A DNA stretch of 59,818 nucleotides, filler included, from Diploschistes diacapsis (Eukaryota): assembly GCA_023645945.1 (NCBI GenBank). It is 6 parts of 6 records of this genome, joined end to end, with 100 filler letters (N's around TTAATTAATTAA, not from the genome) between each part and the next. Parts side by side here need not be neighbours in the genome. Positions count along the whole stretch, not along the records: positions 1 to 28,699 come from JALAIB010000143.1; 5 more parts are not named here. One strand, 5' to 3'. The position numbers were made by a program, and so were the translations under genes. The notes below the pieces were generated by a model, which ran no database searches, was not told the origin of the DNA, and saw only the letters and a list, made by a program, of their open reading frames with translations. Below are positions 4,575 through 51,458 of the stretch, piece after piece (within the stretch, counting starts at the first letter, position 1; each line of letters opens with the position of its first letter).

Positions 4575-5856
4575 TTATATCTCCCTCACAGTCACTGATT
4601 GCGATGCGTTCATGTCTGCTTTCCCAAACGCTGTGCTAGCAACAGTGCTTGTGCCATGATCAAGCTCAATGTTTGTGCCGGTCCTTGACGTGCCACCGAA
4701 ATTCCAGCTCAGAAACTTGTTTCTTCGGGAGCCGGACGGGCCATTGGCGTGCTGCTTGGACGAATTCCCAGTGCGAGATCCGTAGTTTGCGGCTGTCTCA
4801 CCTCTCCGTCGAACATCATCCACGCGCATGAATCCAGACTCCAGGCTGTCGAGGAATGGTCCCAGATACACCATGCACGTGCTCACAACGATCAAGCAAA
4901 CAATACACTGCTCGCAAAGAACAACGGGCCAGTAGTCGAAGGAAGGATCGTCTGGAGTGGTAATCTGGTTCGAGTACACTAATTGGCAGATGATGGCAAT
5001 TATGGCCCTGCAACGGGTCAGTATTTGGCGCTTGTCCGAGATGGTTTCCGAATGCCTACGGTACACGGCCAAAGAATGTCGAAATGACCTTGATCTTTCT
5101 TTTATTCGACAGTTGCAAGCCAGCAACAATCCAACACGGAAGTGCTATCAGACATACTTCGGTCAGAAGATTGATGACGGAGAAATAATTATCCGCCACA
5201 TTCTTTGAATATATTCTAGGTCAGTTTTAACCCCAAGGAATCAAGAACTTTGCAGCACGTACCCAATCAAGGCAAATGTTACCAGACCGCCTCCATGGAT
5301 CCGGCAAACGACATGGGATAGCATAGAGAAAGATCGAGACCACGGCCCACAATCCTATCAAAACACCAACCCCTCTGGTTGTCCACTTATGCCATTTCAC
5401 TGGTGACAGGGAGTGCAGAATGAGAAGCAGGGCTAGTTTGGCGAAAGAAAGAGCGACAATCAGAAGCAATTTTGCTGCGTATTGAGCCTGCCACACGTGA
5501 GGAAAGGTTCAACGCCATCTCCGCAATAGCGTACCTTCTGTTGCGTGTCAACCTGCTCCGCGCTTAGAGTATTCTGATGCTGACCTAAGCCATTGGCCAC
5601 CTCAACCAACACGGTCACCGACTGTGCGATCGAAAAAAGCTAGATCCATGAGTCTCCAATTTCTGGTTAGGGACTCTGATGGCGAACAGACCATGCTGAT
5701 GAGAATGAAAACATCATCAAATGTTATCTTCCGAATGACCCATACTTTGATGGCCTCCCGACCACATACCGAGACTACCGTGAGTGCAAGCAGAAGCCAA
5801 TCCAAAACTTCGATCAAAGGGCCTCGATTCGAGTCCGTGATGACCAAACGAGACAT
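4575..5856 (-). CDS. PTH11-like / fungal rhodopsin-family integral membrane protein, multi-exon
   Basis: Motifs DDVFILIS, NGLGQH, YAAKLLLIVALSFAKL, CRLPDPW, LIALP and YLGPFLDSLESG. Several hydrophobic segments; the introns splice in frame. Confidence 0.75.
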
Positions 5857-6528: not shown

Positions 6529-8130
6529 ATGTCTGACGAAAAGCAACACGATGTAGAACTTGCTGTCTGCGAGGAGACAAAAGAGAATCAAGATCCAAAA
6601 TTGGTATGCTGAACCTTCTTGTCTCTCTTCATACTCCTCTCCTCTTGCTAACCATGAATAGGTAACGTGGGATGGCCTCAATGATTCAGACAATCCCAAA
6701 AACTGGCCCAAAAAGAAAAAATGGACCATGACCCTTATTGTATCCAGCTTCTCGATCTTGTCGCCATTCTCGTGCACGACCATAGCCCCCGCACAAAATG
6801 TTATATCGCAAGAGCTTGGCATAACGGATCCCATCATCGCAGAAATCGCACTGAGTATCTTTATCCTGGGCATGGGCTTCGGGCCCATCATCCTCGGTCC
6901 TCTGTCCGAAGTGTACGGCAGGTACCCCATTCTCATAGCTGGCAATCTGTTCTTCCTCGCCTGGAATATGGGCTGCGGGTTCGCCGCGACCGAGGTGCAG
7001 TTGATCGTCTGCCGCCTGTTTACCGGACTAGGATCGAGCGCGGCGATAGCAATCTCATCGGGCCTAAGCAGCGACATATGGCGACCAGAAGAAAGGGCCA
7101 CGGTTATGGCGATTGCGAATTTGGGGCCTCTGATAGGACCAGCTCTGGGCCCGGTCGCAGGAGGCTATATAACGCAAAACTTCTCGTGGCGCTGGATCCT
7201 GTGGGGCGTGACCGTCTTGAACGTTCCAATTTTAATTATAGGAGTCTTGTGTCTCAAGGAGACCTATGCGCCCAAGCTATTGCTTGCTAAAGCAGAGAGA
7301 TTGAGAAAGGCGACCGGTGACCATAGTCTCTATACGGAGCACGATGAACTCAGACAAGGCCTTGCGAAGCGCCTGTCGACGAATCTCATCCGCCCTGTCC
7401 GCATGATCCTGACCCAGTCCATTATCCAGATCCTCTGCCTGTATTATACCGTTCTCTATGGGACTATGTTTATTATGATTTTTATGTATCCAAACCTCTG
7501 GACAGATGTCTACCTCCAATCCGTCAGTACCGGTGGTTTGAATTATATTTCAATGGCCGTTGGCTTCACCTTCGGTGCTCAGAGTAAGACCAGCACCTTC
7601 CCTCCCCCGCCGCGCGGTCTCTACCGAAACCGAAAAAGCACGGCTAATAGTTTCCAGTCGCTGGCCCCTTGAGCGACCGCATCTATGCGCGCCTCAAAGC
7701 GCGCTCCGGAGGCGAGCACATGGCCGAGTACCGCACGCCGCTGATGATACCGGGCTCCCTCTTCGCTACGGTCGGGCTGCTGATCTACGGCTGGACGGGC
7801 CAGTATGCGGTACACTGGATCGTGCCCAACATCGGCGACGTGCTCTTCATCGCGGGCTGCATTGTCTGTTCACAGAGCATTCTGACCTACACCATCGACG
7901 CGTACATGCGTTACGCCGCCAGCGCCATCTCGACGCTCAACCTGGTCCGCAGCATCGCGGGCTTCATCTTCCCGCTGTTTGCGCCCTACATGTACGACAG
8001 GCTGGGGTGGGGGTGGAGCAGCACGATACTGGCGCTGCTCATTGGTGTCGTCGGCCTGTCGACGCCCTGTTTGCTGTGGAATCATGGGAAGCAGCTGCGG
8101 GCGCGGAGCACGTATGCAGCAGGAGCCTGA
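6529..8130 (+). CDS. MFS multidrug transporter (DHA1-type)
   Basis: VTWDGLNDSDNPKNWP, GPLSEVYGRYP, GPALGPVAGG, WRW, ETYAP and YAASA motifs. Introns at ~6604-6661 and ~7584-7657 join the ORFs in frame. Confidence 0.92.
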
Positions 8131-8775: not shown

Positions 8776-9581
8776 ATGCCATTCGAACTCCACCCGGTCG
8801 ACGAAACTGACTTCCCGGAGGTCATCCGCTGTATGTGGGAGACGTACGAGAATCCTGTGCAGGACTTGTATCGACTCTTTTGCCCTCTGAACGAAGTCGG
8901 CGCAACGGACCACGAATCGGCTATTAAGCAGTCCACGTCGAGATTTTGGCAGTGGCACGTTTCCGACCCAACAAGTTACTGGCAGAAGGTAGTCGATACC
9001 GATGCAGGTAGCAAAATAGTCGGCGCCGCTCTCTGGAAAATCAACACCAAGAATCCGTACGAGAAAATCGTGCACCATCCGGCGTACTGGCACCCCGAGG
9101 GGGGACAGAGAGAGTTCGCGAGCCAGGCGCTGTGGCAGCACGATGCGGTCAGGGAGCGGTGGGCTCAGAGACCGCATATCTGTCGGTTTTTCTTATTCAT
9201 TACACCTGGCTGCAGCAGCACCGAAAGCCAAATGCTGGATGCTAACTCAAACACACACCAGACCTCGGCATCATTTACATGCATCCATCGCGCCAGCGGC
9301 AGGGGGGGGGCAAGAAGATCCTGGAGTGGGGAATTGCGAAGGCGACGGAGATGGGGGTAGAGATGTGGCTTGACGGCTGGCAGTACGGGCGTCCTGTGTA
9401 TGAGAGGTTTGGGTTTACCACCGTCGACCACCATAGGCTGAAGCCCGAGACCGAGAATCCCGATGAGGCGTGGAAGGCTTGCGAGAGAGAATGGACGGAC
9501 TTGGATGAGTGGGTTATGTGGCGTCCTAAAGACGGCCCTTATGTTGAAGGCAAATCCGTGCGTCCGTGGCAGGAGACTTGA
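8776..9581 (+). CDS. GNAT-family N-acetyltransferase
   Basis: KVVDTDAGSKIVGAALW; after one intron, HPSRQRQGGG (acetyl-CoA binding motif A) and GRPVYERFGF. Confidence 0.85.
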
Positions 9582-11901
9582 GCGTGCGCGGGAGCTCGCA
9601 GGTGCATTGACGTTACCTTACATGGGAGCTGGCTAAGGACTGTTTAGACCAATCATACGATGTACCCCCTAAAATAAATATTAACGATGATTAGTGCGCG
9701 TAGAGGGCCATTTTATGTGGAGCCTTTTTTCGTATGGCACCATACTAATCAGCGCTAACCTTTATCCCCGGGGATACTTTGTACTGAAAGGTGGGGTAGT
9801 ATATGGTTGCAATAAACCAATAGAGCAACCTGAAGCTCCTTTGTCTTACTTTGTGTAACAGCGACAGCTAGATCCAGAAGGTGTCATTCGTTACTTAGAT
9901 GCAGACCGTTTCTTGGCCCAATCTTGGGGTTGTGCCTTTGCCAGTGCTTTGATCTGTACTCATGGACACCGAGTAACTAACAAACAGATCATCACTGAGA
10001 AGCCCCCGTTTCAAAGCGGAACATACCAAGGAAAATTTTATTAAACGACCAACTAGTCGAGCAGAGGAATGATAGATATGTCTGGCTAGAGTATATAGTG
10101 CAAGATCTCTCGCTTGCGTAGAGTCAGCGTTATCAAACAGCACGGATGTTGATGACTAAAACGCTCGTTTAATCCAGGGCCATCACCTTCTCCGCATAAA
10201 TGCTAAGCTCTATTCGGCGACAACGCTAGTGTCAAACATTTGGGATTTTAGAACGATTGGACTCAGGGACAATGCTGCCGAGCCGATTGACTTGCATATC
10301 TAGGCCGACTTTGCTGCGCAAACATGCCATGGAGCGGAAGCCCACCTGGGGTTGCTTTTTTATTCGGTGCCAGGTGCCAGGTGCCAGTGCCACGAGCCTT
10401 CACCCCAACCCCGGTTGACTTTTCGGTTCTTTTCTTGCAGTCAAGTCAAGTCAAGTCTTGGCTTTCGTGGGAGTGAGTACATGGTTGGCTGCAAGATTAA
10501 CCGAGTCTACGAGAACTATGAGCGGGGCTCGCCAGACAGCCTTCCCAGGCCAAACTCATTTGAGCTTTCGAAGCTTTGAACATCCCATCATGGCCCCAAC
10601 CAAAGCGCCCATTGATAGAAGGTTCCGCTATATTCGATACAAATATTGTTGGGGCGAAAAATAAAAATTGCTCTGAACTATGTATGCCCAGACACCATTT
10701 AGCTCGATACAATGGCGTTATCGACAATCGATCTGAACCCCAAAAATACTTTACACTGGCATGTCCACGAAGGGACCCTCCCGGGCAGGGTGTGTGCAAG
10801 CTATTCGATGACCTGCTTGCTGCACCGAGAGAAACTGGGTTCAATTGTGACCTGCCTTTGGTGCTACAAGACTATCTCTTTGCGCAGTGTTCTTCTGAGA
10901 CATGGAATTGGTAAGTGATAGAAGCATTGGATTCGAGTACATGCAAGTATCTATGTGCAGATAATTGCTGCCTCCTGCATAACCCCTACTATTCACCTCG
11001 GTCTCGCCCCCGCCCCCCAGGTCCCCACTATGTGCTCCTCACACCACCACCGGATGACTTTTTGGATCAGGCCAGCTAGCCTGCATGAATTTATTAGCTA
11101 ACATGGCGAGCCTGCAGCACAAAAAAGACACTGCAATACGTACCGTCGAACATCATGCTCTGGACATTGCACTGCTGGTGAGTGGGAACAATCTCGGCCT
11201 CGGTCGTCTTCATGGGCTGATAGACTATCGTGAGGGCTTTCCAGGGCTGCTCGCGCTTGTCCTCTTGCATGGCCTTCATGACCGAGTCGATGTACATGGG
11301 ACTGGAGCCAGGCATGTTGCTGAATTGATTTGTTTGAATGGGTGCTTTATAAGAAGATTGTTTGGGCTTGGAGACTATTGTGCTGTAGATGGACGGGAAA
11401 GACAGTTTGTCTGAGATGGGATACGAGCAGGTATTTATAGACAATAGACGTATGGCCCTGTCTTGTCCACGCCCAATCTGCGTAGGGACGGAGAACTATT
11501 TAGACATATTTGACGACGGGATATCTGACAAGTGCAGTAGGGTTGGAAATGCTTGCACAATAGCAGTACTCTGCAAACTACTATTCAATACTTACCCGCG
11601 GCAACGTCCGTCAAGACGGTCCAATCAATCACCTCTGCTCCAAGACCCTACTGAGAAAATCCCAAAAGTCAGATATCGCTTTTCACTCCAAAGGAGCATT
11701 CGTATGGTATGAAAGTAGCTAGCATATCATGTCGGAGATTCTGCAGAGTCGCTTAAGCTACGCCAGGTTGGCCCAGCATCGTTCACGAGACCAGCTGTGA
11801 TGCACCCATTTTGAGGATAGCCATTTCACACATACATATGCAGGAAGTTAAAAGGTGTCAGGGTTATCCTTATCTCCATCTTTTACAAACCACAAGGCAT
11901 T

Positions 11902-13248
11902 ATGAGTTCTCAAAACGAGTTTGCCTCGATCGACTTCCTCAAATGGCAGGACATCTTCGAGCAAGAGAAGCCATTCATGCTCTTTCTCGACATCCCGAAA
12001 GACAGTCCTGACCAGCGCGTGACCAATGTGGACTTTGTCGACCACGAAGTCGCCATACAAGATGTTCGTGGACAAGAATCATCCCTCGATCTGGACACCA
12101 ATGGGTTCAAGGTGGCTTACATTGACCGGACTTCGATTAGCGACGATCCGGACAGAGTCGAGACGCATTATCTGCCTGTTCTCGAGAAGATGCTTCAAGC
12201 AGAAATCCGAGGCGCTGACCGAATCATCTTCTTCGATTGGAGAGTAAGTACCCCCATGTCATTCCCTCCAGCTGCTACCCCATTATGGAGCTTGCAGGGA
12301 CTAACGTCCCGCTTGTAGCGTCGTTTGGCCTCAGAAAGTAACCATTCTAGCCAGCAGCACGACCTCAACGACCATAAAGCACATATGAAGCCCGCCCGCG
12401 CTGCACATGTTGGTATTGACTTCCCCTGTAGAGCGATGCATTAGCCAGGGCAAGTTAAGCTAATAGGCATTTGCAGATCAGTCTCCAGCCGGCGCCTTAA
12501 ATCGTTTGAAGGACTATTTTGATACCGAAGCAGCTAAACGAGCGCTGCGTAACCGGTTCCGTATTATCAAGTAAGTTTCTTCACGCTGCACGCTTAACAT
12601 TATTCGTCCACCTTGATTCTTCAGGCTTTTTTGTCTTTCAAACTTTTTATTGCTTTTCGTTCATTACCAACGCACTCATCTCGAAGGATGTTGAGAGCCA
12701 GCGCCCCTCCCCAAGCCCCCTCCTCTGCATCTTTTTTTTTTCATTAGTTCTTCTCAAGTTTCATGTGAGATACATGCTAATATCCGTAGCATATGGCGCC
12801 CCGTGGGCCATATTGTATATGACTGGCCACTAGCTATCTGTGACGCACGCTCCGTGCCGCCAGAAGGCTTGGTAGAGGTAGATCAGGTACGGCCGGGTCG
12901 TGTCGGCCATTCCATGTTCCTGCAATACAGCCAGGGACTCCGCTGGTCTTATCTGCATCACCAAGAACCCCACGAGGTCTGGCTCTTTAAGCAATTCGAC
13001 TCGGCGGAGAGTATTGAGGCAAGATGTGAGTCGCTGCGTTCCTCATCCCTTTGGTTTTTACTTAGAGCGGGCCATCCACTCTATGAAATTGAGAAAATAG
13101 CTCGTTCTATGAAGCTAATGCCTCACCTGGTACAACTTTAGACTGTCCTCACTCCTCGTTTCGCCACAGCTTCATTCCACCAGGTTCGCCGGAGAGAGCG
13201 AGCATTGAAGTGCGCGCGATGATAATCACGGATCCAGATGCTATGTAG
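11902..13248 (+). CDS. AsaB/CmcJ/NvfI-like (GA4-desaturase family) oxygenase, 5 exons
   Basis: Spliced product contains IQDVRG, LDTNGF, IFFDWR, PARAAHVDQS, IINIWRP, DWPLAICDARS, WLFKQFDS, CPHSSF and RASIEVRA. All introns are GT-AG and keep the frame. Confidence 0.85.
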
Positions 13249-13684
13249 ACAGCGTATGGCTTAGCTGTGTGGCAGTGTTTGAAGTGTCATTTAGGATTAA
13301 TGCTTTATGTGTGGCTGGTTTTCTTCTACGGCAAAATACTGGTGTACATAGGATATTAGGGTAACCCAGCTTCTGCTGGCAAAATGCAATGCAATTCTTC
13401 ATTAGTATTATATTAACTTTGATATTTTTTGAACATTTTTTGAATATTTTTTATTACGTAGTTATTGCTTACGTAAAACAGGTTGACTTCGTCATCTTCA
13501 CCGGTTTCACCAGTTTTTGTGCACTTCCGCAGGTTTTCGCGGTGTTTTGCCACCAAAATCCCTTTCACGAATTTTATATCAGCACACGGGCTTTTATAAT
13601 TTATTAAAAATAAGTAATACGCGCCAGTGGCCTTACACTAGTTACGTTATACCACTAAATCCTTATCTACAACAAGCATAGTGT

Positions 13685-16600
13685 TCAAATCTTGACTACA
13701 TCGACCCGCCTGCTAGAGTCTGCAAGAAAGAGATCCAGCAAGGTTAAATACTGCGCTCCCAGCCGCTGTAAGATTGATGTTCCATAGAGATATTCTTGGG
13801 CCGCAAACGTTATCCTGGCTCCTCCGCTTGGGTTCTCCAAGATACTCACACAGAGATCGTAGCTGATGTTGACACCAGTCGCATTGCGCTCTCTTAGTGT
13901 CAGATCTCCGACTTGCACTTCGGCAAGGTGGTGCTGCAAATAGTTGATCTGAACCTGGTAAAGCGGATGGTGAGTTGCAGGCAATGCCTCAAGGCCAAGT
14001 TCTGAGAGGATCACGTCAAAAGGCACTTGCGCATGGCCAGCTGCAGTGTAGCAGACACTTCTAGTATCGCGACAGAGTTCCGAGAAGGCTAGATTGGATA
14101 GGTTGAGGAAGCGCAACGGTAGGTAGTTGAACATTGGGCCAAATACATCTGCAAACTCAGGATGCGAGGCTCTTCCTGCATCTACAGCTCCAATACAGAA
14201 ATCTCTAAGAGGTAATACCTTAGCTAAGAGAATCCGGAACATTGTCAGATGGTAATGGTAGGGGGATACCTTAATGGCGTCTGCAGCGCGCTTGATGGCT
14301 GTCGTTGTCTCACGTGACAAATCCTTGCGGATACCCTGTAATCTGAAGTCCTCCAGCCTCTGTCGCTCATTCACAGATGAACCTGGAATTAATGGCAAAG
14401 GTTTCATGCTGTGCTGATGTTGGTTTCTCCAGAATCTGATACTCTCAGACCAGGTACTGTCATGGAGTGCTTTGTGCTCATAATGCGCAAAGTCCACAGG
14501 TTGCCGCGCAGCTGGTTTGAGGTTTTCGCCACGATATGCACGATCGAGATCTTGCAGAAAGAGTTCGATGCTGGTCACATCGACGACGATATGGTGGAAG
14601 CTGCACATGAAAGCCGACTCCATAATTACTGCGACCATGGTCTGCCCTGTACCAAGGTCGAACTTGGTGTTGTTGACTCGATCGAACTCTGCTTTGATAT
14701 TGCCAGAGCTGACCTCGAGTTGGACCGTAGGAACAGCCATGACCTCTTGCATCCGACCAACAAACCTCGTACGCAGGATCTCATACTTCTGCACCACCAT
14801 TGCGAATGCTTTCTTGACCGGTCAATGTGAACCTGACCTTCAATATTGTAGACCCAAGCCAGATTGTTTACTCGGGGTGCTTTCGTGAACTGATGTATGC
14901 GGTACATCCGGGCCTGCGTATACGACATGGGAGCCTTCCGACCTTCACCTTCGCTCGATGCTGGCATTAACAGTTACGGGGATTCTATAAAAGCACCTTC
15001 TGGGAGATCCCAAGATTTATGAACAAGGCTTGCTATGTCAGACACGGTAGCTCCACTCAAAATTTTCAAGACCGGCATGTCAATCTTGAGCTCGGCCATG
15101 AAGAATGACCTTATCTCTACCGCTAATAGAGAATCCACACCAAGATCAATAAGTGGCGAGGACTCAAGTACTCGGTCCAGCATCAACATTCGCCCAAGTT
15201 TAGCGCAGAACGCCCTTAGTATCAAATATCGAGAGTCTATTCTGTTGGCTTCGAGCTGCTGTCGAAGCGGCACCACTTCCCCTTTAGTAGCCAGTTGCTG
15301 TGTCTCCGTGACTTTATCTTTCTTATCCACAATGAGCTGCGAGACACGAGGATCCGAAAGCCACGATATGTCGGGTACTGAGCCATCGATAACACCGTCA
15401 AGACCAGCAATGACCTCCGTGTCATTTGTGTGACCTGCGATTATGGCTTCGGCGAAAATAGTTCTGAGCTCTCGCTCCGAAATAGTCATAACATTCCTGC
15501 TCCTGGCGTGCTCATGTTCATGACCGCCTTTCATCCGTGCAAGGTACCCAACTCCAGAGACAACGCCGATACTCATTGTGGATGCAGCAAGCCCTCTCTT
15601 GCGGCGCGCTTTAGCAATACCGTCCATGAATCCATTAGCAGCCGAGTAATTCGATTGACCGGGATTGCCTACTACCCAAGCAATCGAAGAAAACATGATG
15701 AAAAAATCTAGAGGGGTATCAAAAATTTCATCAAGGTTACGGGTGCCCAATACCTTCGGAGCGAGACTTGTTCCATAGCATCAATGGGCATTTCTTGGAG
15801 TGAGCCATCTAGCAGCACCATTGCTCCGTTAACGACCCCTTTGATTGGTGGCAGCTGTGCCTCGATCTCCTGCACAAGTTCTCGAAGTGCACGGATATCG
15901 CATATATCAAGTGAGCGGACCCAGATTCTAGCTCTTTGCTCGTCCAGCCAGGTTTGATCGATAGTGGGATTTCGACTCGTGAGCACGATATTGCTAGCTC
16001 CTTGACCAATCATCCATTCGCAGAGCGAGCGTCCCATGGTACCTGTTAAGCCTACTAGGAGATAGGTCTTGTTCGTTTTGAATAAGTTGAATGTCTTAGA
16101 AACGTCGCTCACATCGATCAGCATACTGCATGCTTGCGTCCAGTCGACTATTGCGGTTCGAGAATATCCCCCAACATCGGCCAGGTCCGCTACACGTACC
16201 GTATCGTAGCCCTTGCCCTTTTGAAGATCAGGTTTCGAAATCATGGAACCTATCAGCTGTCGCACATTTTCGAAGGAGCTTGAGGATAGCATGGTGTAGG
16301 TTAGGCACACAATGTCTGGCGAAGCTCTCTTGATGATATCATTCCACTCGTTGTCACGGCAATAGATGAAGACCTGAACACCGGCAAGAATTCTCCGGAT
16401 TTGGGTCAAGCTCATAAGTGGATTCAAGTGCACTACGTCTGAAGCTCCGTTCGTAGACGTCCAAAGTAACGGCTGACGATTGTGGCTAGGATCGGACTTC
16501 CAAGTGGATAGCAAGGCATCAGGAGCATCATGTATCATGATTTTGCGCGCAGCGAGCTCAGAGATAGAGTTGGCAATGATGCTCCAATACAGACAGTCTA

Positions 16601-19600
16601 TTAGCTCCGGCCTTACGGTCCCACCAATCTTGAACACGTGCTGCAAGAATTTTGGCTTTACAAGCGAACATGGCTCGTGTGTAAATGCTAGGACTCGGTC
16701 GTCAGTAGGAAGTGTTCCAATGCAGAAAAACAGCCTGTTGCCATCGATCATGACCGGTTGGAGAGTCGAGTAGCATATGATTGCATGCTCGCTTTCTTTT
16801 AAAAAGTCCTGCGGTGAATGCATTACAACATGGAAGCCCTTCACGTTTCGGGTTATCTTCATCGGCACCATACTCGGATTGACCTTGTGCGTGATTCGTC
16901 GTCTATTACTGTTGAGTCGGTCATTCCTCGCGTGGTCGAGCACGATCCGTGGAATGGAGAAAACACCTTCACATACTTCCAACTCCGGCTCCAAACTTCA
17001 CGTTACATCAGCGTCCGGCGTAGGAAAGTGCACGAGCTTGAGGAATGATTCTGCGATAAGGTCGGCATTCAAAATTTGGTCGCGAACGATCAACACTTGA
17101 ATACGGAGATGAGGAATTTCCAGTCTTAGTGATCGCAAAAGGCCAATGAAGATACTTGTGTATGGGTTATCCGCTCTGGTTACGAAGAATATCCGTTGCG
17201 CTGTAGAAACCATACGCTGGAAGCCGCCCAACTGAGCTGCATTGAGACGCTCAAATACTGGCTGGTCATAATCGAAAAGGCAGAGCAAGGGAGCACCAGT
17301 TGACAGTAGGGTTGATTGAACATCCTCTATGTGGTCCACAACAGTCTGCTTCTTGAAATACGGACGCATGGAGGCTGATATGCTGTCCCTAACGGATTCA
17401 ACAGAACAACCCCCTACAACTATAAATTGTTCGATTGGTTCTAAATTCTGGCTCAGAGGCCGTCGCATTGCTTTGACGGAAGGGTCGATCGCCCGACTCA
17501 AGAAGACATAGCCAAGGTTGACATTTGGGAGGGCGCTATCTTTGTTGAGCATCTCGATACCGGTAAAGCCACTTTGCAGCAAGAGCGCCTGCCACTGGTC
17601 GGGACTGAGCATTGGCCCCCATTTCCTATCGTTATCGCCAAGCCACCACCCAGGAAGACCGCCCATCATAAAACCGCTACGCGGAGTATCGACGGAACCT
17701 TCCACGAGGACCAAGAATCCGCCGGGCTTCAGCAGAGAACGCATATAAGCAAGGGTTTGGGCAACACGCCGAGTGGTGTGTATGACAAGTGATCCGATGA
17801 TCAAATCGTAGGAACGCTCCTGGTAGCTCTGCGTGAGCGGGTCCCGCTCGAGATCAAAGGTTTTGAATATCATCTTCTGTGCAAAACTCGAGAACTTCTC
17901 CTGGGCCTTCTCGAAAAAGCCTGATGAGACGTCTGTGAATGTATATGATATGAACCGATGATTCAGTGAATCCAGCACATGCTGTGTGGCACCACCAGTT
18001 CCAGCACCGACTTCAAGGATCATCATCCGGGGATACCGGTGAGCTATGCGAGATATCAAGCTATGTAGAATTTGATAACATCTGTCATAGCCCAAACCTT
18101 CCTGGTAATATCGACTCAGTTTCCCATCAGCCATCATGAATTCAAGCATGGGCCGTCGCTCTACCAAGGCAACTGGCAGATTCATACCCACGGCTCGGAT
18201 GAGCTGCATGTCAGCAGAATCAGCATGGGCTTCAATCAAGGCTGCAATCTGTTCGTGCGAATCGTGTAACCACTCTGGATTGACGGTAGGGAACTCTTCT
18301 TCTTTCAGTTTGGCGAGAACATGATCGATGAAATTCCACAGTTTCTTGAAGTGCCACTCAGCCTCTTCGACCTGTTCCATAGTAAGGGAGGATCTGAATT
18401 GGCGGTAGTAGTACCAGAGCACGCGGTCGCATGCAGACACCAAGTCCTGCTCCGCGCGTCCGTACTCCGTGACTTTTATTGGAGCACCATCGCAAACGTC
18501 CGACTCCCAGACAGTCTTCGCAAAAAGCGTGCGATCATCTACAGGTTCGAGAGCTTTGAGGGGTACCCACACCACGTCCTGAAGCTGGACTGTTAGATTT
18601 GCTGATGCATAAATGTCAACGTCCCCCTTCATTCCCGAATAGCCTTGCTCGGTAACAACAGACCTGAAAGTGACAGCTGAATTGGCTTCCGCCGGAGCTA
18701 CAGGAGCGATGAACAGTATGCGGTCGATACTCTGCGGTATCAATAGCGGCGAGGTACATTCATCACCAAGCCGGACAGACGCAGCGAGCAGAGCCTGTAG
18801 CGCAAGATCAAGTATTGCCGGGTGTAGAATGCTGTCCGATTGCTCCAGAAAGGCACGTGTCTCTGAACGTTTGGTTGCTTGCTGCACAGAGGCGTACCTT
18901 CGAAATGCTCCCGAGTATTCGAGACCAATACCTTTGAAGTGGTCATAGAAATCATCGACGTCAAGCGCTTCAAGAGACGTCTTACTTTCATCGTCAAAAC
19001 ATGGAACAAGTTTAGCCTTTGGCGAACCATAGCTGATGATCAATTCCGCGCTGAATGTGGAATCCAGTTTTGATGTATTGTATAATGAGCCAGCTGCGCA
19101 AGTTACACGACTAGTGATTCGTGTTGCTGAGGCCTCTCGTACGCTCATTCCGAAGACTACCTCTGTTGGTACGTTCTCGTCGAGGATGACGGCTTTTGCA
19201 ATCTTGAAGTCGAGTATTTCAACCGCCATGTCCTCTGTCCCCAGTCTTATGCTCCTAGCAGCCTCCAGAGTTGCCGCTGCGTACCACATTGCTGGAAGGA
19301 TGAACTGCCCCTGAATTTGGTGGCCGCGGAGCCAGTGGAACGACCTCAAACCGATCACGTTGCGGAAAATTAGGTTGCCATCAGTAGATTCTGGCTCTTG
19401 TGTTCCTAGGAACTCATATGCTCCCACAGGCTCGGTCAAGAATCGTTTGGACAGACGAGGCTCTCGTAGCAACACATGCTGGTGATCCCACTGGTATGTG
19501 GGTAGGTCGGGCACAGACTGAGGCTGAGAATACGATGAGCCGTACCAAGCTAACCTGTATGCATCGAAGTCCAGTGTGCTACAAAGTCCATTCTCCCACA

Positions 19601-22360
19601 AGAAGCCAAGAGCGGTGGAAACTGCTACCACACTGTCTTGTCTACGGCTCAGAGTGCCGTGGTATGATGGTTGTTTAGATGGCTTGTCTTTAGAACACGA
19701 AAATAGGGTCTCAGTTGCTGGTGACTTAAGCGCCGGGTGAGGACCTACCTCTAACACGCTGCTGAAGGGACCATACTTGAAAATACCAAGATCGAGCGCG
19801 GGAGCGAACAGGACCGGCTGCGTCATGTTGTCTACCCAGTATTGGTTGGGCAAAGTGTTAGATGTAAAGGGGCTCCCACTTCCGTAAACGCTCGATACCC
19901 ATGTACAGTCGGCATTACCTGTGCTTCCGGTGACGCCACAGGCATTGAGGGACTTGAGATAGCTATCAGCACAAGGCGCCATATGACTCGAGTGGTATGC
20001 AGTATCGACAATCAGTTTTCTGGCGAATATGTCTCGACTATGGAGCAGTCACTTTACCTCATCAATTGCGTCGACATCCCCGGAAAGCGTCGAACTCGAA
20101 GGTGAATTACTAGCCGCTACAGACATTCGGCCAGTCCATTCAGCTTGGCTGCAAAGATCACCTGCGTCCGCGTAAGATAAGCCAACGGCCATCATAGCCC
20201 CGGAACTACCTTCACTGCCCTGAGCCAGTGAGGCATAGAGGCCTCGATAGTAAGCAATGCGAATGGCATCAGTGGCAGAGACATGACCTGCTGCATATGC
20301 GGCGGCAATTTCGCCGGAGCTGTGACCCACGACTACGTCAAAATCCACACCTATTGCCCTTAGGTGGTTGACCAAAACGATTTGAATTGCGGTGCATAGC
20401 GGCTGCGAAAGCAACGCCTCCCCAACACGAGAGATGTCTGATTCCTTCAACAACTCATCCATGATGGACCAAGACGGGCCATCTGAAAGTGTTGACAATG
20501 AATTTTGAAGAGACTTGATGGTTTGATGCGCTATCGAAGACTGCTCTATAAGGCTCTTGCCCATTTGCGCGTACTGTGCACCTTGGCCCGTAAAGACACC
20601 CAACAATTTCAAGCCATGACTGTTTGAAACGTCATATCCAGGACACTTCACTCTGTCGAGCGCGTCATCAATCGCTCTAACAACATCCTCTCTGGAGGTC
20701 CCCGATATCGTGAGACGGTACTGAAAAGCAGTTCTTCTCTGCAGGGTCCTTGCGAAACCTTCCAGAGAGACGTTGGGAATGTCATGCAGGTAATTGCGCA
20801 TCGATCGCAAATTTGAGAACAGAGACGTCAAGGTCTTTGCGGAAAAGGTAAGGGGCGTCACAGTAGAGCCTAACATACTCTTATCGTACTGTGGGTGATG
20901 GCTTTCAACAATCGCATGAGCATTAGTGCCACCAAAGCCAAAGCTATTGACGCTGACGCGCCTGGGAATGCTTGGTATTTGATTTGGTAACTGCTCGTAC
21001 ACTGTCTGGATTCGCAGCTGACCATAGTATTGCTCAATCTCGGGATTCAGCTTGCGGAAGTGAAGGTTTGGAAGAGCCTTGCCATATTGGACGGCCAGAC
21101 ATGCTTTGATAAGCCCCGCTATGCCAGCAGCGCCCTCCAGGTGTCCCAAAACCGTTTTGATAGATCCAACCAAGAGGGGACTGACGCTCTGCGCGTTCGA
21201 GTCAAAAAAGGCTTTGAAAATAGCTTCCGCTTCAATAGGATCTCCCGCAGATGTACCAGTCCCATGTGCCTATCGATGATGAATTAGATTTCAGGCATTT
21301 AAGCACTAAAGTAGGGTGGTAAAGAACATGTCAGCACTCGACTAACCTCAAAATACTGCGGTCGATCTGTGTCTTTGCTCGGATCGAGGCCAGCCCGTCG
21401 GTAAGTCCGTCGTATAAGTTCTGACTGCGCGTCTGCGCTCGGCATAGTTATACCCCTAGTCTTCCCGTCTTGATTGACGCCAGTCTCCCGAATAATGCAT
21501 CGAATGTCATCTCCATCCCGAAGTGCTTGGTCCAAAGTCTTCAGTATGACCGCTCCGAAGCCCTCGCCTCGCGCATACCCGTCAGCTTCCTCGTCCCACA
21601 TGCTTATTCGACCCGTAGGCGATAACATTCCTAGATTCGAAAGAGCGATATACTGCTCAGGCTCCAGGATAAGATTACTTCCTGCGGCAACTGCAGCAGT
21701 TGCTTCTCCGTTTCTGAGGGTCTGAATGGCCTGATGCACCGCGACCAAGCTGGAAGAGCACGCGGTGTCGATACTCATGCAAGGCCCTTTCAAGTCAAAG
21801 AAGTAAGATATTCGAGCGGCAAGTATACTTGCATGAGCGCCGGTAGCCGCATATTCTGGGACGGCCTTGGGATCACGTATGTAAAGCGAGTCGCGGAAAT
21901 CATAGCTCATTCCACCAACAAAAACAGAAGTGTTAGAGCCCTTTATCCCCTCCAGTGTCAATCCGGCGGACTCCAACGCTTCATACACCGTCTCCAGCAA
22001 GATTCTTTGCTGAGGGTCCATGGTTTCTGCCTCTCGCGGATGGATGTTGAAGAAGGCGGCATCGAAGAAGCGATGGTCCTCCTCGAGGAAGTACGATCTT
22101 CGGGTGTTAAAGGTTCCATGATGATGTGGATCTGAATGGTAGAAGTTGTCGATGTTGAATCGTTCTTTGGGTATCTCTTTCGAGATGTCGTGCGGATTAG
22201 TCAGTAAGTCCCAGAGTTTCTCGGGGTTTGTTGCTGGACCAGGAAACCGACAAGCAAGCCCAATCACTGCGACTGGCTCGCCTGCATGCAGCCCGCCTCT
22301 CTCCGGGTCTGCTGCCATTTCGTCGATATCTATAGATGAAGTCTCCGGGTCTGCTGCCAT
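13685..22360 (-). pseudogene. Truncated PKS-NRPS hybrid (HR-PKS KS-AT-DH-cMT-ER0-KR-ACP plus terminal condensation domain), disrupted
   Basis: KS DTACSSS/EAHGTGT/GHLEGAAG; AT GHSSGE and AYHS; DH GHQIQGQFILP and HPAILD; MT ILEVGAGTGG; KR VGLTGTMG and YSAAN; ACP LGVDSL; C domain HHIVVD. In-frame stops at 20049-20051, 16998-17000 and 14974-14976; frameshifts at ~15765 and ~14817. Confidence 0.9.
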
Positions 22361-22384
22361 TTCGTCTATATCTATAGATGAAGT
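22301..22384. repeat. 42 bp tandem duplication spanning the PKS start codon
   Basis: Two copies of ctccgggtctgctgccatttcgtc(g/t)atatctatagatgaagt with one mismatch; encodes [14 protein letters not shown] twice. Confidence 0.95.
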
Positions 22385-22639
22385 CGAACGTGGAAGCTGG
22401 ATACACACCTTTCAAAGAGGGTTAGCCCGCTACGCCTTATAAAGTAAATGGTGCGAGCCACAGTATTCGGTCGACGTTGGTGTAAGCTCGGAATTAGTAG
22501 GTAGGACCAAGCAGGAAGAATATTATCTTTGGGACTGCCAAGTCAGCTCTTTGTGAGCTTCACATGTCAAGCGGCATCCGTTTTCAAGTTCACAGCATGA
22601 GTGTGCCTTACTGAGCACTGCCGACAGATTACTCATGAT

Positions 22640-24043
22640 TCACCTGATCTTCACTTCATGTCTGAGCATTTTGACAACACTGTATGGCATCATAGCCCCT
22701 TCTTCACCCCTTCGCAGTGACGGGTAAACCCACGGCGGAACACACCACAAGGACCACGTTAGCAGCCACATATGGCCTACAATTCGCTCGAGCAAGCTTT
22801 GCCATTTGCTTGTCCTGTTTCCGACCAATCTCATCCACAGCCGACCAATTATATCCTCAAACAGCATCCCAAGGACTTGCATGGGGAAGAACCAGCAGCT
22901 TGACCAGAATTGCGCCGCTCCTCCTGTGACTCCCAAAGGCTGTACCATATGTGCCAGCATGCTCAGCTCAAATACAAAGAATGTTGTAAGATAACGCGCA
23001 AACGGCCCTCTGCTGTTCCTCAGTGAAGAATCTTTAGGCAGGTAGGATAGGAGCGTTTCGGTAAAAGCGCCGCTCACGGCCACATAAGGAACTTGAAAGA
23101 TCTGGTGCCAGAATTTGCCCCAGTGGTTCCGGATGCTGTATTCTTCCGCAAAGTTGCCTACCAATGGAGGCCAGTCTTGAGGCTCATATAGCCCAAAGGC
23201 TACGCCAATAAAGGCAATAATGGAATGAATGTAGGTGATCATCAGTCCCGTGCTAACCCATAGGTTGAAATTTATCACGAGCCGGCACCACAGCTCCATG
23301 GCATCAACTTCGTCAAACCTTCTCAAGAGAGAGTCGTACCGTGGAGCGAAATATCGAGAGGGCAGTGGGGGCTGGTTGGTCAGTAGGTCGAGAAGGAGAT
23401 AAGAGCTTCCGGCAGAGAGAAGACAAGAAGTCAGAAACGAGAATCTCGATGATGGCGGAAGATATGCCGGCGTATTCTTCGCTTTTTGAAAGTATTGAGA
23501 CGATACATTACGGTGGTTGATCAGGAGATAGTCAACGGACTGAAAGGGGGTCATATTGGAGAACGGCTTCGATGTCTTCATATCGACTGGACTGCTCTGC
23601 TCGTTTTTGGCCAGAGCTCCGGTTGCTGGCTTACGTTGCAAAGCGCTAGAAGCACCTCCTGTGGGCTCTATACCACTTGCCATAGCCGTTGCTTCAACTG
23701 AATTTTCGAGTGGGCCTTCAATCTTGTTTTTGCTTCCTCTTTTGGGATCGTAGACGAAGAAGAGGTGGATCATCCGGATCCAGGAAGCAAAGATGAAGTT
23801 TGCTATGAGCCCGTCAAAGTGTCCGGGAATGTGGCCCATGATATTAGGCTTGGTAAGCAATAGATAGACATTCCCCCCAAAGAGAGCCGTCACTACAAAG
23901 CGTAATAAGAATGGTTGCGATGTGTGGCATACCACCAGTACGAAAGCAGCTACAGTGCTGGCAAAGTATACGCGACCGGCCGTATCGGATATCGGAGGCC
24001 CAAGGGATGACAAGTCGTCGAGAGAAGCTTGATGGAAGGCCAT
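22640..24043 (-). CDS. Membrane-bound O-acyltransferase (wax synthase / Tri7-like MBOAT)
   Basis: Uninterrupted ORF with DWPPLVG, SIRNHWGKFWHQ, FELSMLAH, FFPMQVLG and VGHMW, plus multiple hydrophobic helices. Start assumed at MAFHQ. Confidence 0.85.
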   Translation of the reverse strand: MAFHQASLDDLSSLGPPISDTAGRVYFASTVAAFVLVVCHTSQPFLLRFVVTALFGGNVYLLLTKPNIMGHIPGHFDGLIANFIFASWIRMIHLFFVYDPKRGSKNKIEGPLENSVEATAMASGIEPTGGASSALQRKPATGALAKNEQSSPVDMKTSKPFSNMTPFQSVDYLLINHRNVSSQYFQKAKNTPAYLPPSSRFSFLTSCLLSAGSSYLLLDLLTNQPPLPSRYFAPRYDSLLRRFDEVDAMELWCRLVINFNLWVSTGLMITYIHSIIAFIGVAFGLYEPQDWPPLVGNFAEEYSIRNHWGKFWHQIFQVPYVAVSGAFTETLLSYLPKDSSLRNSRGPFARYLTTFFVFELSMLAHMVQPLGVTGGAAQFWSSCWFFPMQVLGMLFEDIIGRLWMRLVGNRTSKWQSLLERIVGHMWLLTWSLWCVPPWVYPSLRRGEEGAMMPYSVVKMLRHEVKIR

Positions 24044-24433
24044 GGCATGTAATAGTATACGCTTCGCTGCTTTATAGTACCTGTAAGTATGTGACAGTCG
24101 TAAAGGTAGAGAAATGGCGAAAGTAACCCACTGAAGTTGAAGCTCGGAACTTAATAACGCCGCTAGTCTACCGTTTGGCGCAACTTTCAACAACGTTGTT
24201 GGTATTCTACACTGGCTCCTGCTGCCCTGGTAACCACCACTTTATGCTTGACATTGAGTTACACCTGAAATAGTCAGCATACAGCGTGGCAGGATGAAGT
24301 GTATGTAAGGAGTAGAAATGACATCTACAGCATTGTACAACTTGTCATCTTGTAGCTTGGGATTATGAGTCGTCAATAGAGGCTCTAAAACTTAAGTACA
24401 TTCCACCCTTTGTCAGCCTACCCTTCCTTTACC

Positions 24434-26297
24434 ATGTTCCTACCGTCTGAATATCGCGATATTTCTTCAAGAGACCTCCTCAGTCACATTTTCAATAACC
24501 ACACTGAAACAGATACATCTAACCCCATATACATAGACGCAGCCAATCCCTCGAACAGCCTTTCGCGAGCCCAGTGCCGGCTGCTTGTGCGGCAGCTCAT
24601 TGCGGGCCTACGACATCTTGGAGTCAAGCCTGGCCATAGCGTGGCCGTCCATGCTTACAACAGCATCTACTATGGCCCACTCTTCCTCGCAATCGTTGGA
24701 GCCGGCGGAGTCTATGTTGGTAGCAATCCTGCATATACAGAAGCCGAGCTTGCGCACCTATTCGCCATCTCAGACGTAAAGTTCATCTTCACAGGGCCCG
24801 AGCTTGTAGAACGTATCCTACCTCCCTCGCGCAGACACGGCATCCCAGAGCAGCATATCCTCGTGTTCGATGCTGACTCCCCAACGCTCACGACACCTTC
24901 TGACGTGCATGGGCCCATTCAACAGTCCTCTCCCATCCGAGAGCACCTCGAAAGGAACACCAGCAGCCTTACTTCAGACCTCCGGGACCACAGGCCTACC
25001 CAAGGCAGCTTCGTTAAGCCACTACAGCTTTGTTGCACAATCCATCATGATTCAAGACCGCAAGCCAAAGCCATACTGCGTGCGCCGCCTTCTGTACCTT
25101 CCCTTCTTCCACGCCTTTGCGGGCCCTTTAGCGAACATCGCCCCGTTATATGAGGGCATAGCTACCTACGTGATGAGGCGGTACGACCAACAGATGTTCC
25201 TTGATAGCGTACACAAGTATGCAATCACGGAATCGCACATGGTAAATCCTATCGCGCTCGCAGTACTTGCTCTGCCGCCGCAGCAGCAAGCAAAGCTGGA
25301 TTCGTTGCGCCTGGTGTGGACAGCAGGTGCGCCGCTAGGTTCAGGTCTGCAGTCGCGATTGGCACAAGCTCTCCACGGGGAGGCACGTGTGGTGGAGGTA
25401 CTTGGCATGACGGAGTGTGGATGGATTGCAACGTTTCAATACCCAGAAAAGGATCTTAGCGGCAGCTGTGGCCGACTGATGCCCAACGTGGAGGCCAAGC
25501 TCAAGGACTTTGGCGGCCAGGATATTACCGCCGAGAATGAAAACGGAGAGGTCTGGTTTCGAAGTGTGAGTCGAATGTCAGGCTATAAAGGCAACGAGAC
25601 TGCCACACAAGAGATGCTGGCTGAGGGAGGCTGGTTAAGATCCGGAGACGTAGGGTTCATCAAGGAAGGCAAATGGTTCATTGTTGACAGGGCGAAGGTA
25701 AGTTGGCGGATCTAAACCAGAATGAAACTGTCCTCGTGCGTACAAACTAATTTAGGTATACAGGATATCATCAAAGTCCGCGGCTGGCAAGTCTCACCAG
25801 CTGAACTAGAAGCTGTTCTTTTGTCACATCCCATGATTCGTGATGCTGCCGTATTGGGTGTCGACCTCGACGACGAACGAGGCGAACTACCTCGGGCATA
25901 TATTACAGTTGAACAGGACAGGTCTCAGTCGTTGGAACAGCCTACCGATGAAGATATCCTTGCGTTCATGGGTGACAGGCTAGCAAAATACAAAGCTTTG
26001 GCTGGCGGCATTGAAAGAGTAGACACGATACCTCGGGGACCAGGTGGCAAGATACTCAAGGCATGGATGAAGGAAGAACCTCTAGACAAGATCAAAGTCC
26101 TCCCAAGTAAGGGATCAGCAAAGCGGAATCAACGGGACAAGTCCGAGAAGCGAGGTACCAAAGGTGAAGACGTCCTTCAAGAGACTGCGTATTCCATTAC
26201 TAAACGAGTCATGACTTTAAACGGCAAAAGCAATTCAGGACCTTCTATAGAGCAAGACCATGCTAGAGAACTTAAAGTGCCACATGAACTGAACTAA
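24434..26297 (+). pseudogene. Acyl-CoA/4-coumarate-CoA ligase-like adenylate-forming enzyme, apparently frameshifted
   Basis: NPAYT, TSGTTGLPKAA, GMTE, GWLRSGDVG, IVDRAK|DIIKVRGWQVSPAELE and GKILK motifs. The frame changes near 24870-24900 with no frame-correcting intron visible. Confidence 0.75.
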
Positions 26298-26385
26298 AAC
26301 TGTGTGACGACACTTGGCGTGGGTGGGTTTTGGTTTGATACCATCGTCACCTACTCGCAATTTGAAGAACTTGCAGGTACCATAC

Positions 26386-27996
26386 TCAAACTCTCTTCTT
26401 CAACCACACCTGGCCCTGGGGATTTGGGACCATTCCTCCCTCTGTGAAGATATTCTTTGGCCTGCTCTCGCCTTCATTAAGTTTGATATCATAATTTAGA
26501 ATTAGGTGCACCAGGATGATCTTGATCTCATTTGCTGCGAAGAATCTGCCAGGACATGCATGGACACCATGCCCCCAGTACAGGTACTCTTTATTCGTCG
26601 TAACATACTGATACCTGCCATCGTTGGCCTTGCTCTTGCTCTCGGTTCTCAATTTGTAGAAGCGTAATCCATCAAACGTGTCAGGGTCTGGATAAATAGC
26701 AGGGTCCGTAGCTATGCAGCCAACCGGCACAGTAACAGTAGAGTGTTTCGGAAATACTGTCTCATCGTTCATCGTGACATCTGTCTTCATCTTGCGACTG
26801 AAGCCTGTGCTGCTGAAAGGATTCAAACGCTGCGATTCTTTCATGAAGCTGTCCATCTTCCGCAGACGTGCCATGCTAGCTTTGCTGAGGATACCGAGTG
26901 GCTCCGTTCGCTGCACCTCGATGATCTCTTCTCATAAGGGTTCGAGATACTCTGGATGCGCCGCAAGATCAAAGAAGATGTGCGTCATAGTGTTTGAAGT
27001 GGTATGCATGGCCGCTGTGGCGATTTGAAGCTGATACATTGCTTGCCAGGTCAGGTCCGTAGCCCGCCCGGGAGGTGAATTGGCGAGGATCCAAGTCAGC
27101 ATGTCAGACCGTCTGGGGTCAGAAGCGAGACGAGCGGCAAGTACAGGAGCCAGGAGACGCTTCATGGTCTCTATGGAAGCTTCCGGTCTTCGACATTCCG
27201 CAACCCACAAAGAAGCTAAGGGACGAAGCCAGGGTGGGTACTTGCGCATGACTGGAATGACGCTGAACCCCTGCACTGCAAAGTTGAGAGCACAGTCGAG
27301 ATACTCTTCGTTGCGGTTCAGCTCAGGGCCGATGAAGATGCGACCGGAAACCAGAGCAATAATTCGCATGAGGCCTGCCATGGGATAGGAGGGCGTCCAG
27401 TCTGTTATATTAGGCCCGCACTCGAGGAGTAGAAGTCGTCAATGCATACCTTTGCACTCCCCTATCACCTGAGCAAAGGCATAATCAATCTCCTCCTGCA
27501 AATCGTTCATAATGATCCCAAGATTAGGTGTTAGATTGTTCTTGATAGTATGGGTGAGCGTCTCGTCGTGAATACCGCCTGGGGCAAGCATCTTGGTATA
27601 TTGCCCTAGAAACCGCTACTCTTGTTTAACTGAGCTGTCTTCATCTTACTTATGAAGGACACTTGCATCGTCTATATCTTCAAGGAAGTTGACCTTCTCG
27701 TCCGGCCACTGCATCAACTCATCGACATACTTGGCGGGGATGATATGCACGTCTTTGTGCGGATGCTCAACAAGGTATATATGATTCTTGTCTTTGGCGT
27801 AGTTTTCCTGCATTATATCCTCAAGCGTATCAAACTTACTCTCGTGGTTTCTGCTCTGCTTCGTTACGTATTTTGGCACGTCTGTTTTCTTTCTTCCCTG
27901 GTACACTCGAACCGAATAGTAAAGTACAAGAGGAAGAAGCAGGCTCAAAGCCATTGGCAACATAGAGCCATCGGTTGAGAGAAGATGTTGCAACAT
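26386..27996 (-). pseudogene. Cytochrome P450 (ent-kaurene-oxidase-like secondary-metabolism P450) with a premature stop
   Basis: AAMHTTS, KMDSFMKESQR, FDGLRF and the heme motif WGHGVHACPGRFFA. YLEPL*EEI has TGA at 26932-26934 where EPLREE is expected. Confidence 0.85.
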
Positions 27997-28699: not shown

Positions 28700-28799
28700 N
28701 NNNNNNNNNNNNNNNNNNNNNNNNNNNNNNNNNNNNNNNNNNNTTAATTAATTAANNNNNNNNNNNNNNNNNNNNNNNNNNNNNNNNNNNNNNNNNNNN
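28700..28799. other. Artificial scaffold linker (N44-TTAATTAATTAA-N44)
   Basis: Identical 100 bp spacer with a six-frame stop also occurs at 34936-35035, 41163-41262, 47390-47489 and 53607-53706. Confidence 0.97.
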
Positions 28800-29735
28800 T
28801 CCCTCCTCCGCGCCAACCTCCTCGGGTTCCTGTGGTACTACCTCCTCCTCGACATGCTCAAAACCTACACACTCCACGACGCGTACTTCCTCGGCCACGG
28901 CTCCCTCCTCACGAGTCCCTATTCCCTCTCTTCCGTCCTCCCAACCTCTCCTCCAGCCCCACCGCTCCCCCCATTCCTACCACTCTTCCTGGCCCGCTCT
29001 CCCTCCCTCTCCAAATGGCTCCGCCTCCTCCTTGCCCTCCTGACCACGCGCCTCGCCCTCGGCCTGATCTTCACGCTCTCCCCCCTCTTCTTCGTCGGCG
29101 TCCTCGGCACGCGCGCCCTCGGCCTGCGCGCCGAACCCTGGCTGTACGCCGACTTCGGCGGGTATTTCTCGCACCTCTACGAGGCCGGGCTCGCCGGCTG
29201 GTGGAGCAGGTGGTGGCACCAGATCTTTCGCGTCGGGTTCGAGACGCCGGGGCTTTGGGCGTGCGGGAAGTTGGGGCTGAATACGAAGGGAAAGCGGGGC
29301 AGGTTGCTGTGCGTTGGCATCGCGTTCGGGATAAGCGGGGTGCTGCATGCGGCGGGGAGCCGGACCATGTTGCCGGAAACGGATCCCCTCGGGGGACCGT
29401 TGCTGTTTTTCGCGCTGCAGGCGGTCGGCGTGGTGGGCGAGGGCGTGGTGAGGGGTTGGCTGCGGGGGAAGGAGCGGTGGAGGCATGGGGTGCCGCGGTC
29501 GGTGAAGGAAGCGTTCACCTTCGTGTGGGTGGCGGGGTGGATGTATTATACTGCGCCGTTGGTTGTGGATGATTTCAGTAAGGGGGGAATATGGCTGTTT
29601 GAACCCGTGCCTTTTAGTTTGTTGAGGGCTTTGGGGTATGGAGAGGAGGGGGACAGCAGGCTGTGGAGGTGGAGGGGAAGAAATGTGTTTTGGTATACGG
29701 GGGATCGCTGGTGGAAGTCTGGGATAGCAGTATAA
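28800..29735 (+). CDS. Second wax-synthase-type MBOAT, 5' truncated by the gap
   Basis: GLAGWWSRWWHQIFR, AFGISGVLHAAGS, FFALQAVG and DDFSKGGIWLFEPVPFS. The frame is open from the gap edge. Confidence 0.85.
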   Translation, partial: SLLRANLLGFLWYYLLLDMLKTYTLHDAYFLGHGSLLTSPYSLSSVLPTSPPAPPLPPFLPLFLARSPSLSKWLRLLLALLTTRLALGLIFTLSPLFFVGVLGTRALGLRAEPWLYADFGGYFSHLYEAGLAGWWSRWWHQIFRVGFETPGLWACGKLGLNTKGKRGRLLCVGIAFGISGVLHAAGSRTMLPETDPLGGPLLFFALQAVGVVGEGVVRGWLRGKERWRHGVPRSVKEAFTFVWVAGWMYYTAPLVVDDFSKGGIWLFEPVPFSLLRALGYGEEGDSRLWRWRGRNVFWYTGDRWWKSGIAV

Positions 29736-32416: not shown

Positions 32417-32752
32417 CAAGATTTTGGCCCAAGTGTAGTCAAGCCAGGCAGGCAGCTGTGGCCGCTGTGCCCTTACTAATGGTGTAGTGCTGTTCCGACA
32501 ATTTCAACTCGTTAAGCGAGAACTTCTTTGGAGCTTGGACCATCAAAACACGTGCATTTAAATTTCGTAGTAGCTTAGTAAAGGTCTTGAGCACGCGAGG
32601 GAGAGAGTACTCAATCTTATGTCGCATTTAATTCTTCCGAGATATTCATGATCTTCTCCATTGTCGTCTATTAGGATCTTATTACTAACCTTCTCTACCA
32701 AACCCTTATTTGTCCGTTACTCATTTCCCTCCGCAAGCCTACTGCCGTCGCC

Positions 32753-51200: not shown

Positions 51201-51458
51201 GGTACATCTCATCAACATAGTTGGCGGTGTTGCCATGGAGAAATGAGTCGTTCGGATCCTTGCACGATCAACAATTAAACGGTAATTGGGAAGAGTCTGC
51301 CTTACTACGCCCTTGTTTGTTTGATCAGCGGCCACGGCATACCTTCGTCTTTGCACAGGAGCTCCTGACTGCAGACTCGCAGCGAGGCCTGAGCATCGTG
51401 GAGCTCTCAAGGACGCACGAACCGTGCAAACCCCACGTAGCGCAGCGTTACGAAACAT
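48201..51458 (-). CDS. KGD1: 2-oxoglutarate dehydrogenase E1 component, mitochondrial
   Basis: [58 protein letters not shown] and [10 protein letters not shown]. Multi-exon. Confidence 0.97.

Follow-up and report, generated by a model that had tools for sequence, protein, structure and literature searches.

A broken copy of a probable uncharacterised PKS-C/MBOAT pathway in a lichen-fungus genome

The window analysed here, a stretch of 59,818 nucleotides including filler, carries in its first part what is very probably a pseudogenised copy of an old, uncharacterised fungal pathway, the conserved core of which is a polyketide synthase ending in a condensation domain (PKS-C) together with an MBOAT acyltransferase. 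Judged from its reading frames, the cluster is dead in this genome and this copy cannot make the product. The best overall explanation, which we favour on balance but hold with some reserve, is a decayed member of a PKS-C/MBOAT family that combines release of the chain by the C domain with acylation by the MBOAT. All of positions 1-28699 belong to one contig (C480) of a fungal assembly of 29.1 Mb, while the remainder of the window lies off this contig, and the closest named relatives of the cluster proteins are those of the lichen fungus Thelotrema lepadinum. The features of the locus are as follows.

6529..8130, plus strand: intact MFS transporter, candidate cluster member
8776..9581, plus strand: intact GNAT acetyltransferase, candidate cluster member
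11902..13248, plus strand: CmcJ/NvfI/AsaB-type Fe/2-oxoglutarate oxygenase, an intact gene of 5 exons coding for 290 aa, HVD and the distal His included
13250..13600, no strand assigned: decayed dispersed repeat between oxygenase and PKS, with 11 other matches in the genome at 68-88% identity
13685..22360, minus strand: HR-PKS-C pseudogene (KS-AT-DH-cMT-KR-ACP-C), one intron at 21345-21270, C motif HHIVVDV
22640..24043, minus strand: MBOAT_2 acyltransferase (TRI7/wax-synthase-like) of 467 aa in one uninterrupted frame, apparently intact
24434..26297, plus strand: 4-coumarate-CoA-ligase-like adenylate-forming enzyme with one intron (25698-25763), broken at 24933/24934, where a deletion shifts the frame
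26386..27996, minus strand: cytochrome P450 with two introns and an in-frame TGA (26934-26932) that precedes the heme cysteine

An earlier note on this DNA had described a five-gene cluster, and its coordinates are correct: the oxygenase starts at an ATG at 11902, the PKS runs from an ATG at 22360 to a stop at 13685, and the MBOAT, the ligase and the P450 occupy 24043-22640, 24434-26297 and 27996-26386. The tight spacing is also borne out, with 279 bp from the MBOAT stop to the PKS start, 390 bp between the MBOAT and ligase ATGs, and 88 bp between the ligase and P450 stops. All five genes are present, with Pfam matches to KS, AT, DH, MT, KR, ACP, Condensation, MBOAT_2, AMP-binding and p450; what the title of the note understated is that three of the five (PKS, ligase and P450) are broken.

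The same contig holds an amino-acid permease (AA_permease_2; 1468-3590, minus strand), 10 kb from the PKS, which could bear on an amine acceptor, and a fungal rhodopsin-domain (PTH11-like) membrane protein (4470-5850, minus strand) with a weak Pfam match, the stops of which may be introns or decay. A short ORF and gene-like fragments at 10420-11315 (minus strand), possibly a decayed gene, have no Pfam or Atlas match, and an Atlas search with the ORF at 11145-11315 gave nothing useful. Both contig ends (1-1300 and 28450-28699) are AT-rich with raised TpA, as is typical for RIP-mutated repeats, and a repeat of about 100 bp is present twice within 150-1140. At 28701-28800 and in similar later gaps, N runs around the linker TTAATTAATTAA join contigs, and genes past 28699 are unlinked to the cluster. 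A second MBOAT_2 gene (28800-29735, plus strand), GC-rich and with its 5' end lost at the contig edge, was rejected as a cluster member because it lies on a different contig. Other contigs (30400-32500 and 48300-51500) bear housekeeping genes, including that for the RNA polymerase I A49 subunit; another such gene is presumably that for 2-oxoglutarate dehydrogenase E1, as which it reads.

The PKS has the architecture of fungal PKS-C enzymes, KS-AT-DH-MT-KR-ACP followed by C. Probes made from NRPSs and from PKS tails found no A, T or R remnant downstream of the C domain, which confirms the lone terminal C domain without A-T-R that had been reported. The idea that A-T-R was lost recently by way of the adjacent repeat was considered and rejected, since the orthologues end at the same place; on this comparison of protein ends, the PKS-C is not a fresh truncation. 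The NCBI models that end after C measure 2952 aa in Bisporella, 2956 aa in Amylocarpus and 2904 aa in Cytospora mali; some relatives are intron-blind or partial predictions, and introns may have truncated the ENA, Logan and JGI models.

The family was delimited by a search with a 1853-aa PKS query, from which the 120 best of 8000 scored matches were taken; it covered only proteins of up to 3243 aa, so full PKS-NRPSs could not appear. Among these 120, the top 11 (40-56% identity) all have a Condensation domain, and the next match is at 36%. Thirteen of the 122 proteins tested carry a C domain that is 37-63% identical to that of the window and end 0-34 aa after it; they include one cluster member and one fragment, and P0127 and P0247 belong to the same 90% cluster, so that 12 are distinct. 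In a C-domain tree of 29 rows, the window and the 13 relatives lie on one side of a branch with 100/100 support, and in a KS-AT tree (119 rows, three having been dropped for short coverage) the window groups with the 11 relatives that have the region, with a support of 0.966. Both trees place the PKS in a supported clade, within a search set of proteins of up to 3243 aa. A C-domain search among proteins of up to 2000 aa returned one fungal fragment (P0001) and bacterial NRPSs; a single-sequence fold of P0001 was discarded at pLDDT 35. In P0154, P0163, P0166, P0167, P0175 and P0179, which form a separate clade of the C tree, the PKS tail consists of C, a short linker and a carrier-like domain, without an A domain.

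The PKS had been likened to TwmB and LovB. It is a genuine PKS-C, but the second His of the C motif, replaced in both of those enzymes, is unsubstituted here: the motif reads HHIVVDV in the window and HHxxxD in 13/13 relatives, followed across the clade by V, T or M in place of Gly. Both His are also found in the remaining 15 C domains compared, so that they do not set the clade apart. In all 12 relatives examined there is agreement at the MT, KR-Tyr, ACP and C motifs, which are intact wherever the domain is present. Pfam called no ER domain in the PKS. On the contig, one ER probe gave no match under E 1 and no ER family appeared among the 30 ORFs scanned; the contig stops 700 bp beyond the P450, and a trans-ER partner may lie further out.

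The MBOAT matches PF13813 (MBOAT_2/TRI7-like) at 56.6 bits, against a cut-off of 25, and a search with it gave 13 matches, one of which was the window's own. In Thelotrema, the PKS-C and MBOAT orthologues are at adjacent loci (MCJ1334307.1/MCJ1334308.1); in Amylocarpus, they are three accessions apart (KAG9237502.1/KAG9237505.1) on a 182321-bp contig, with two genes of unknown kind between them. Two ENA assemblies have both on equal-sized contigs (39724 and 48753 bp), the size match being a proxy and not a map. The Bisporella orthologues are on separate scaffolds, and for P0132-P0135, P0137 and Cytospora none of the 13 MBOAT matches is on an equal-sized contig. PKS and MBOAT identities correlate over 15 non-independent pairs (Spearman 0.76). 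A scan of JGI metagenomes yielded one locus (L001) out of 48 pattern matches, which has the MBOAT orthologue only (1035-2376), beside a transposase-like relic (2900-3700), and no cluster gene on its 10-kb contig, where 1 kb upstream is covered. Co-occurrence in other genomes, on which the proposal of a cluster depended, is thus found for PKS-C and MBOAT in four other lineages. As for the full gene combination, its core recurs in other fungi, and the ligase, P450 and oxygenase are seen with it in near-identical relatives; in the comparisons made, which took in the PKS, the MBOAT and the ten best ligase matches, the five-gene set is shown only here, with coverage in sequencing runs X2 (30/30 bins) and X3 (27/30). 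By these comparisons, the conserved unit shown is PKS-C plus MBOAT.

The AMP-binding domains of the ligase are nearest to 4CL/luciferase rather than to NRPS A domains, which makes it a 4CL-like acyl-CoA ligase. Its matches reach only about 50-55% among the 150 listed, and none of the ten best of these is on any cluster-bearing contig, in a library that holds one protein per 50% cluster and may therefore hide orthologues. Once its four GT-AG introns are spliced, the oxygenase measures 290 aa and shows HVD as well as the distal His (PHSSF). Two of its exon pieces match the CmcJ_NvfI_EfuI HMM, but their scores of 44 and 79 bits both fall short of the cut-off of 80; the protein matches NvfI (E 3e-9), and an Atlas search with a piece of it led to ascomycete clusters. 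The exon and NvfI matches, together with the HxD...H iron triad of the spliced model, uphold the assignment to the AsaB type, while membership of the oxygenase in the cluster is uncertain. It may be that PKS-C and MBOAT alone were inherited, and that the ligase, P450 and oxygenase either were added in particular lineages or are bystanders. This would agree with the distant ligase matches, with the lack of a ligase orthologue on a cluster contig among the ten best looked up, and with an oxygenase that seems better conserved than the PKS, a repeat lying between the two. We nevertheless consider it rather unlikely, as the genes are tightly packed, the ligase and P450 are broken like the PKS whereas the MFS and GNAT genes are intact, Amylocarpus has its two intervening genes, and contigs of X2, though from nearly the same organism, bridge PKS-MBOAT and ligase-P450.

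For the intact relatives, the following mechanism may be put forward tentatively, at somewhat less than even confidence. The PKS would build a C-methylated chain from malonyl-CoA and SAM. By the logic of HR-PKSs, this chain should be methylated and unsaturated or hydroxylated; because there is no cis-ER match and no trans-ER nearby, the chain would stay unsaturated or hydroxylated, unless a reductase lies elsewhere. The C domain, with its catalytic His, would then take the chain from the ACP and release it by coupling to a free amine or alcohol, replacing the lost A-T-R. A release catalyst is the simplest view of this domain because it is conserved to its last residues, retains both His and is followed by no release domain, and because release of this kind is reported for TwmB (PMC11153888); an N-acyl amide would be a conceivable product. 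MBOAT_2 enzymes use acyl-CoA, and the 4CL-like ligase beside the MBOAT would be its natural supplier: the ligase would make the acyl-CoA and the MBOAT transfer from it a second acyl group to a hydroxyl, with the P450 and the Fe/2OG enzyme hydroxylating or desaturating.

The main rival to C-mediated release is re-activation of the polyketide acid for the MBOAT. The C domain would then be structural or hydrolytic, the ligase would re-activate the polyketide acid (or supply a starter) as a CoA ester, and the MBOAT would move the polyketide onto an alcohol. The same logic is described, in the available parts of the reports, for squalestatin Mfm9/Mfm4 (PMC8902786) and for Lpg6/Lpg3 (PMC13213483), and it would suit both a ligase that resembles 4CL/acyl-CoA ligases and not an NRPS A domain, and the clade-wide absence of the Gly that would follow the motif Asp, where V, T or M stands instead. 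We judge it unlikely, since both His and the Asp are retained in 13/13 relatives at 37-63% identity and the contig has no visible hydrolase, terpene cyclase or second core enzyme to supply the acceptor. Keeping to C-mediated release, one could go further and regard the clade as a distinct fungal kind of PKS-C, in which a C domain with its catalytic His works in trans with the stand-alone ligase: the ligase would activate the acceptor in place of the lost A-T, C would couple the polyketide to it, and a second acyl chain would come from the co-inherited MBOAT, so that lichen and leotiomycete fungi would share a lipid-like metabolite acylated twice; this larger proposal is speculative and, in our estimate, improbable.

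There is only a slight chance that the PKS-C/MBOAT family already has a characterised member outside the data compared. No characterised name occurs among the 120 best PKS matches at an identity of at least 40%, the six accessions have no publication in the literature searched, and no publication on the gene combination was found there, most chemistry journals being outside its range. Six of the seven supplementary files of the Amylocarpus genome paper (PMC8351168) contain no cluster table. The available parts of the reports on Boydine (PMC12881047), PKS4 (PMC6657885), Botrytis (PMC11173184), Glarea (PMC3672099), a cranberry endophyte (PMC10869595) and Bacidia (PMC9146135) hold no match to the window cluster. 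The nearest PDB entries are LovB and PsoA; the combination, which the earlier note did not recognise as a characterised pathway, thus has no characterised match in the PDB or the literature searched.

As to the state of the copy itself, the PKS frame is interrupted by three stops (20051-20049, 17000-16998 and 14976-14974) and shifted by 1 nt near 15767 and again near 14816; a 42-bp tandem duplication lies across the PKS start (22325-22368), with a second ATG at 22318. Introns were ruled out as an explanation, because the stops and frame changes sit in ungapped alignments to three orthologues, with no intron-sized gaps at the stops. The ligase, where its frame changes at about 24933, is shorter than two homologues, and contigs of run X4 have extra letters there. 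Run X1, which is labelled lichen metagenome and contains every sampled word of the PKS, shows 0 differences from the window over two pieces (5003 and 11328 letters) that cover the region, at a depth of about 92-105. Run X2 has an extra base at 14816 and at 15767, being free of both PKS frameshifts, and lacks the 42-bp duplication; run X3 lacks the 14816 frameshift and the duplication. The listed variants between runs and window comprise 40 of 450 substitutions and 12 of 41 indels, a set that ends ahead of the three PKS stops. Of the 14 C-domain differences listed between X2 and the window, 12 are non-synonymous, as neutral drift would lead one to expect (expected share 0.71) but purifying selection would not (P = 0.001 at dN/dS 0.3). 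Polarised by the three nearest orthologues, about five differences look derived in the window and four in X2, and since derived changes lie on both sides, decay of the PKS may predate the split of the two. On these grounds, and given where the listed set ends, X2 was not accepted as a proven intact allele. The oxygenase differs from X2 in 4 non-synonymous and 6 synonymous codons and is more conserved than expected for a dead gene. At a lesion density of 0.49 per kb, the chance of an unbroken MBOAT is 0.50, and that of an unbroken oxygenase 0.65. No second copy of the PKS-C or the MBOAT was found in this genome. Faulty assembly, or splicing that removes the lesions and leaves the cluster functional, is a barely credible explanation: X1 may be the source of the window and hence not independent, but the seven coding breaks are of three kinds, the PKS stops lack intron-sized gaps, not one difference appears at that depth, and no second copy was found in the genome.

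The PKS-C and MBOAT core pair is whole in several other fungi, where it has no known product, and it is these intact relatives that are worth testing, not the window copy, which illustrates how a pathway decays in a lichen fungus and is of no use for obtaining the compound. PKS-C enzymes of known function are few, and both reference cases, LovB and TwmB, have altered C motifs. Thelotrema lepadinum and Amylocarpus encephaloides provide intact named targets for finding out what is made by a PKS-C that has the canonical His pair and is linked to an MBOAT. The surprise is limited, since uncharacterised fungal PKS clusters are common.

Several known systems resemble the locus in part. The squalestatin cluster has a second PKS and a citrate synthase, which were not seen at the window locus. 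In the available parts of the reports, the squalestatin (Mfm9/Mfm4; PMC8902786) and aculealide (Lpg6/Lpg3; PMC13213483) clusters nevertheless unite, like the window, an HR-PKS, a CoA ligase, an acyltransferase and oxygenases; the aculealide PKS Lpg9 (PMC13213483), unlike that of the window, is described there without a C domain and with a terpene cyclase as its partner. The clonorosein cluster of Clonostachys rosea shares with the window an HR-PKS and a stand-alone adenylate-forming enzyme, amide formation being proposed; in the available part of its description, the PKS is without a C domain, the gene table is without an MBOAT or P450, and the mechanism is a proposal only.

TwmB (wortmanamide, Talaromyces wortmannii) is, as far as its available descriptions extend, an HR-PKS with a lone terminal C domain, like the window PKS. 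TwmB works with a trans-ER partner, and the trans-acting enoyl reductase of a TwmB/LovB-type pathway was not found on the window contig. According to the available part of one report, the C domain of TwmB releases the chain onto a free amine, forming an amide (PMC11153888), and in that of another its C motif has Pro at the second His (PMC11731387). By this description, rather than by alignment, HP in TwmB stands against both His in the window PKS. LovB and MokA, the lovastatin/monacolin nonaketide synthases, have the same domain order as the window PKS and give the best PDB match for its AT-DH-MT region (469 bits), but their C motifs (HRLVGDG and HRFVGDG) differ from HHIVVDV and their C domains match at just 95 and 86 bits; the contig showed no partner resembling LovC, LovD or LovF. 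A-T-R, present in PKS-NRPS hybrids of the PsoA type, is absent from the window PKS and from its NCBI-annotated orthologues (2904-2956 aa). It is nonetheless these hybrids that provide the best PDB match for the window C domain (147 bits; PsoA motif HHIIMDG), which is in line with a descent of the PKS-C from such a hybrid.
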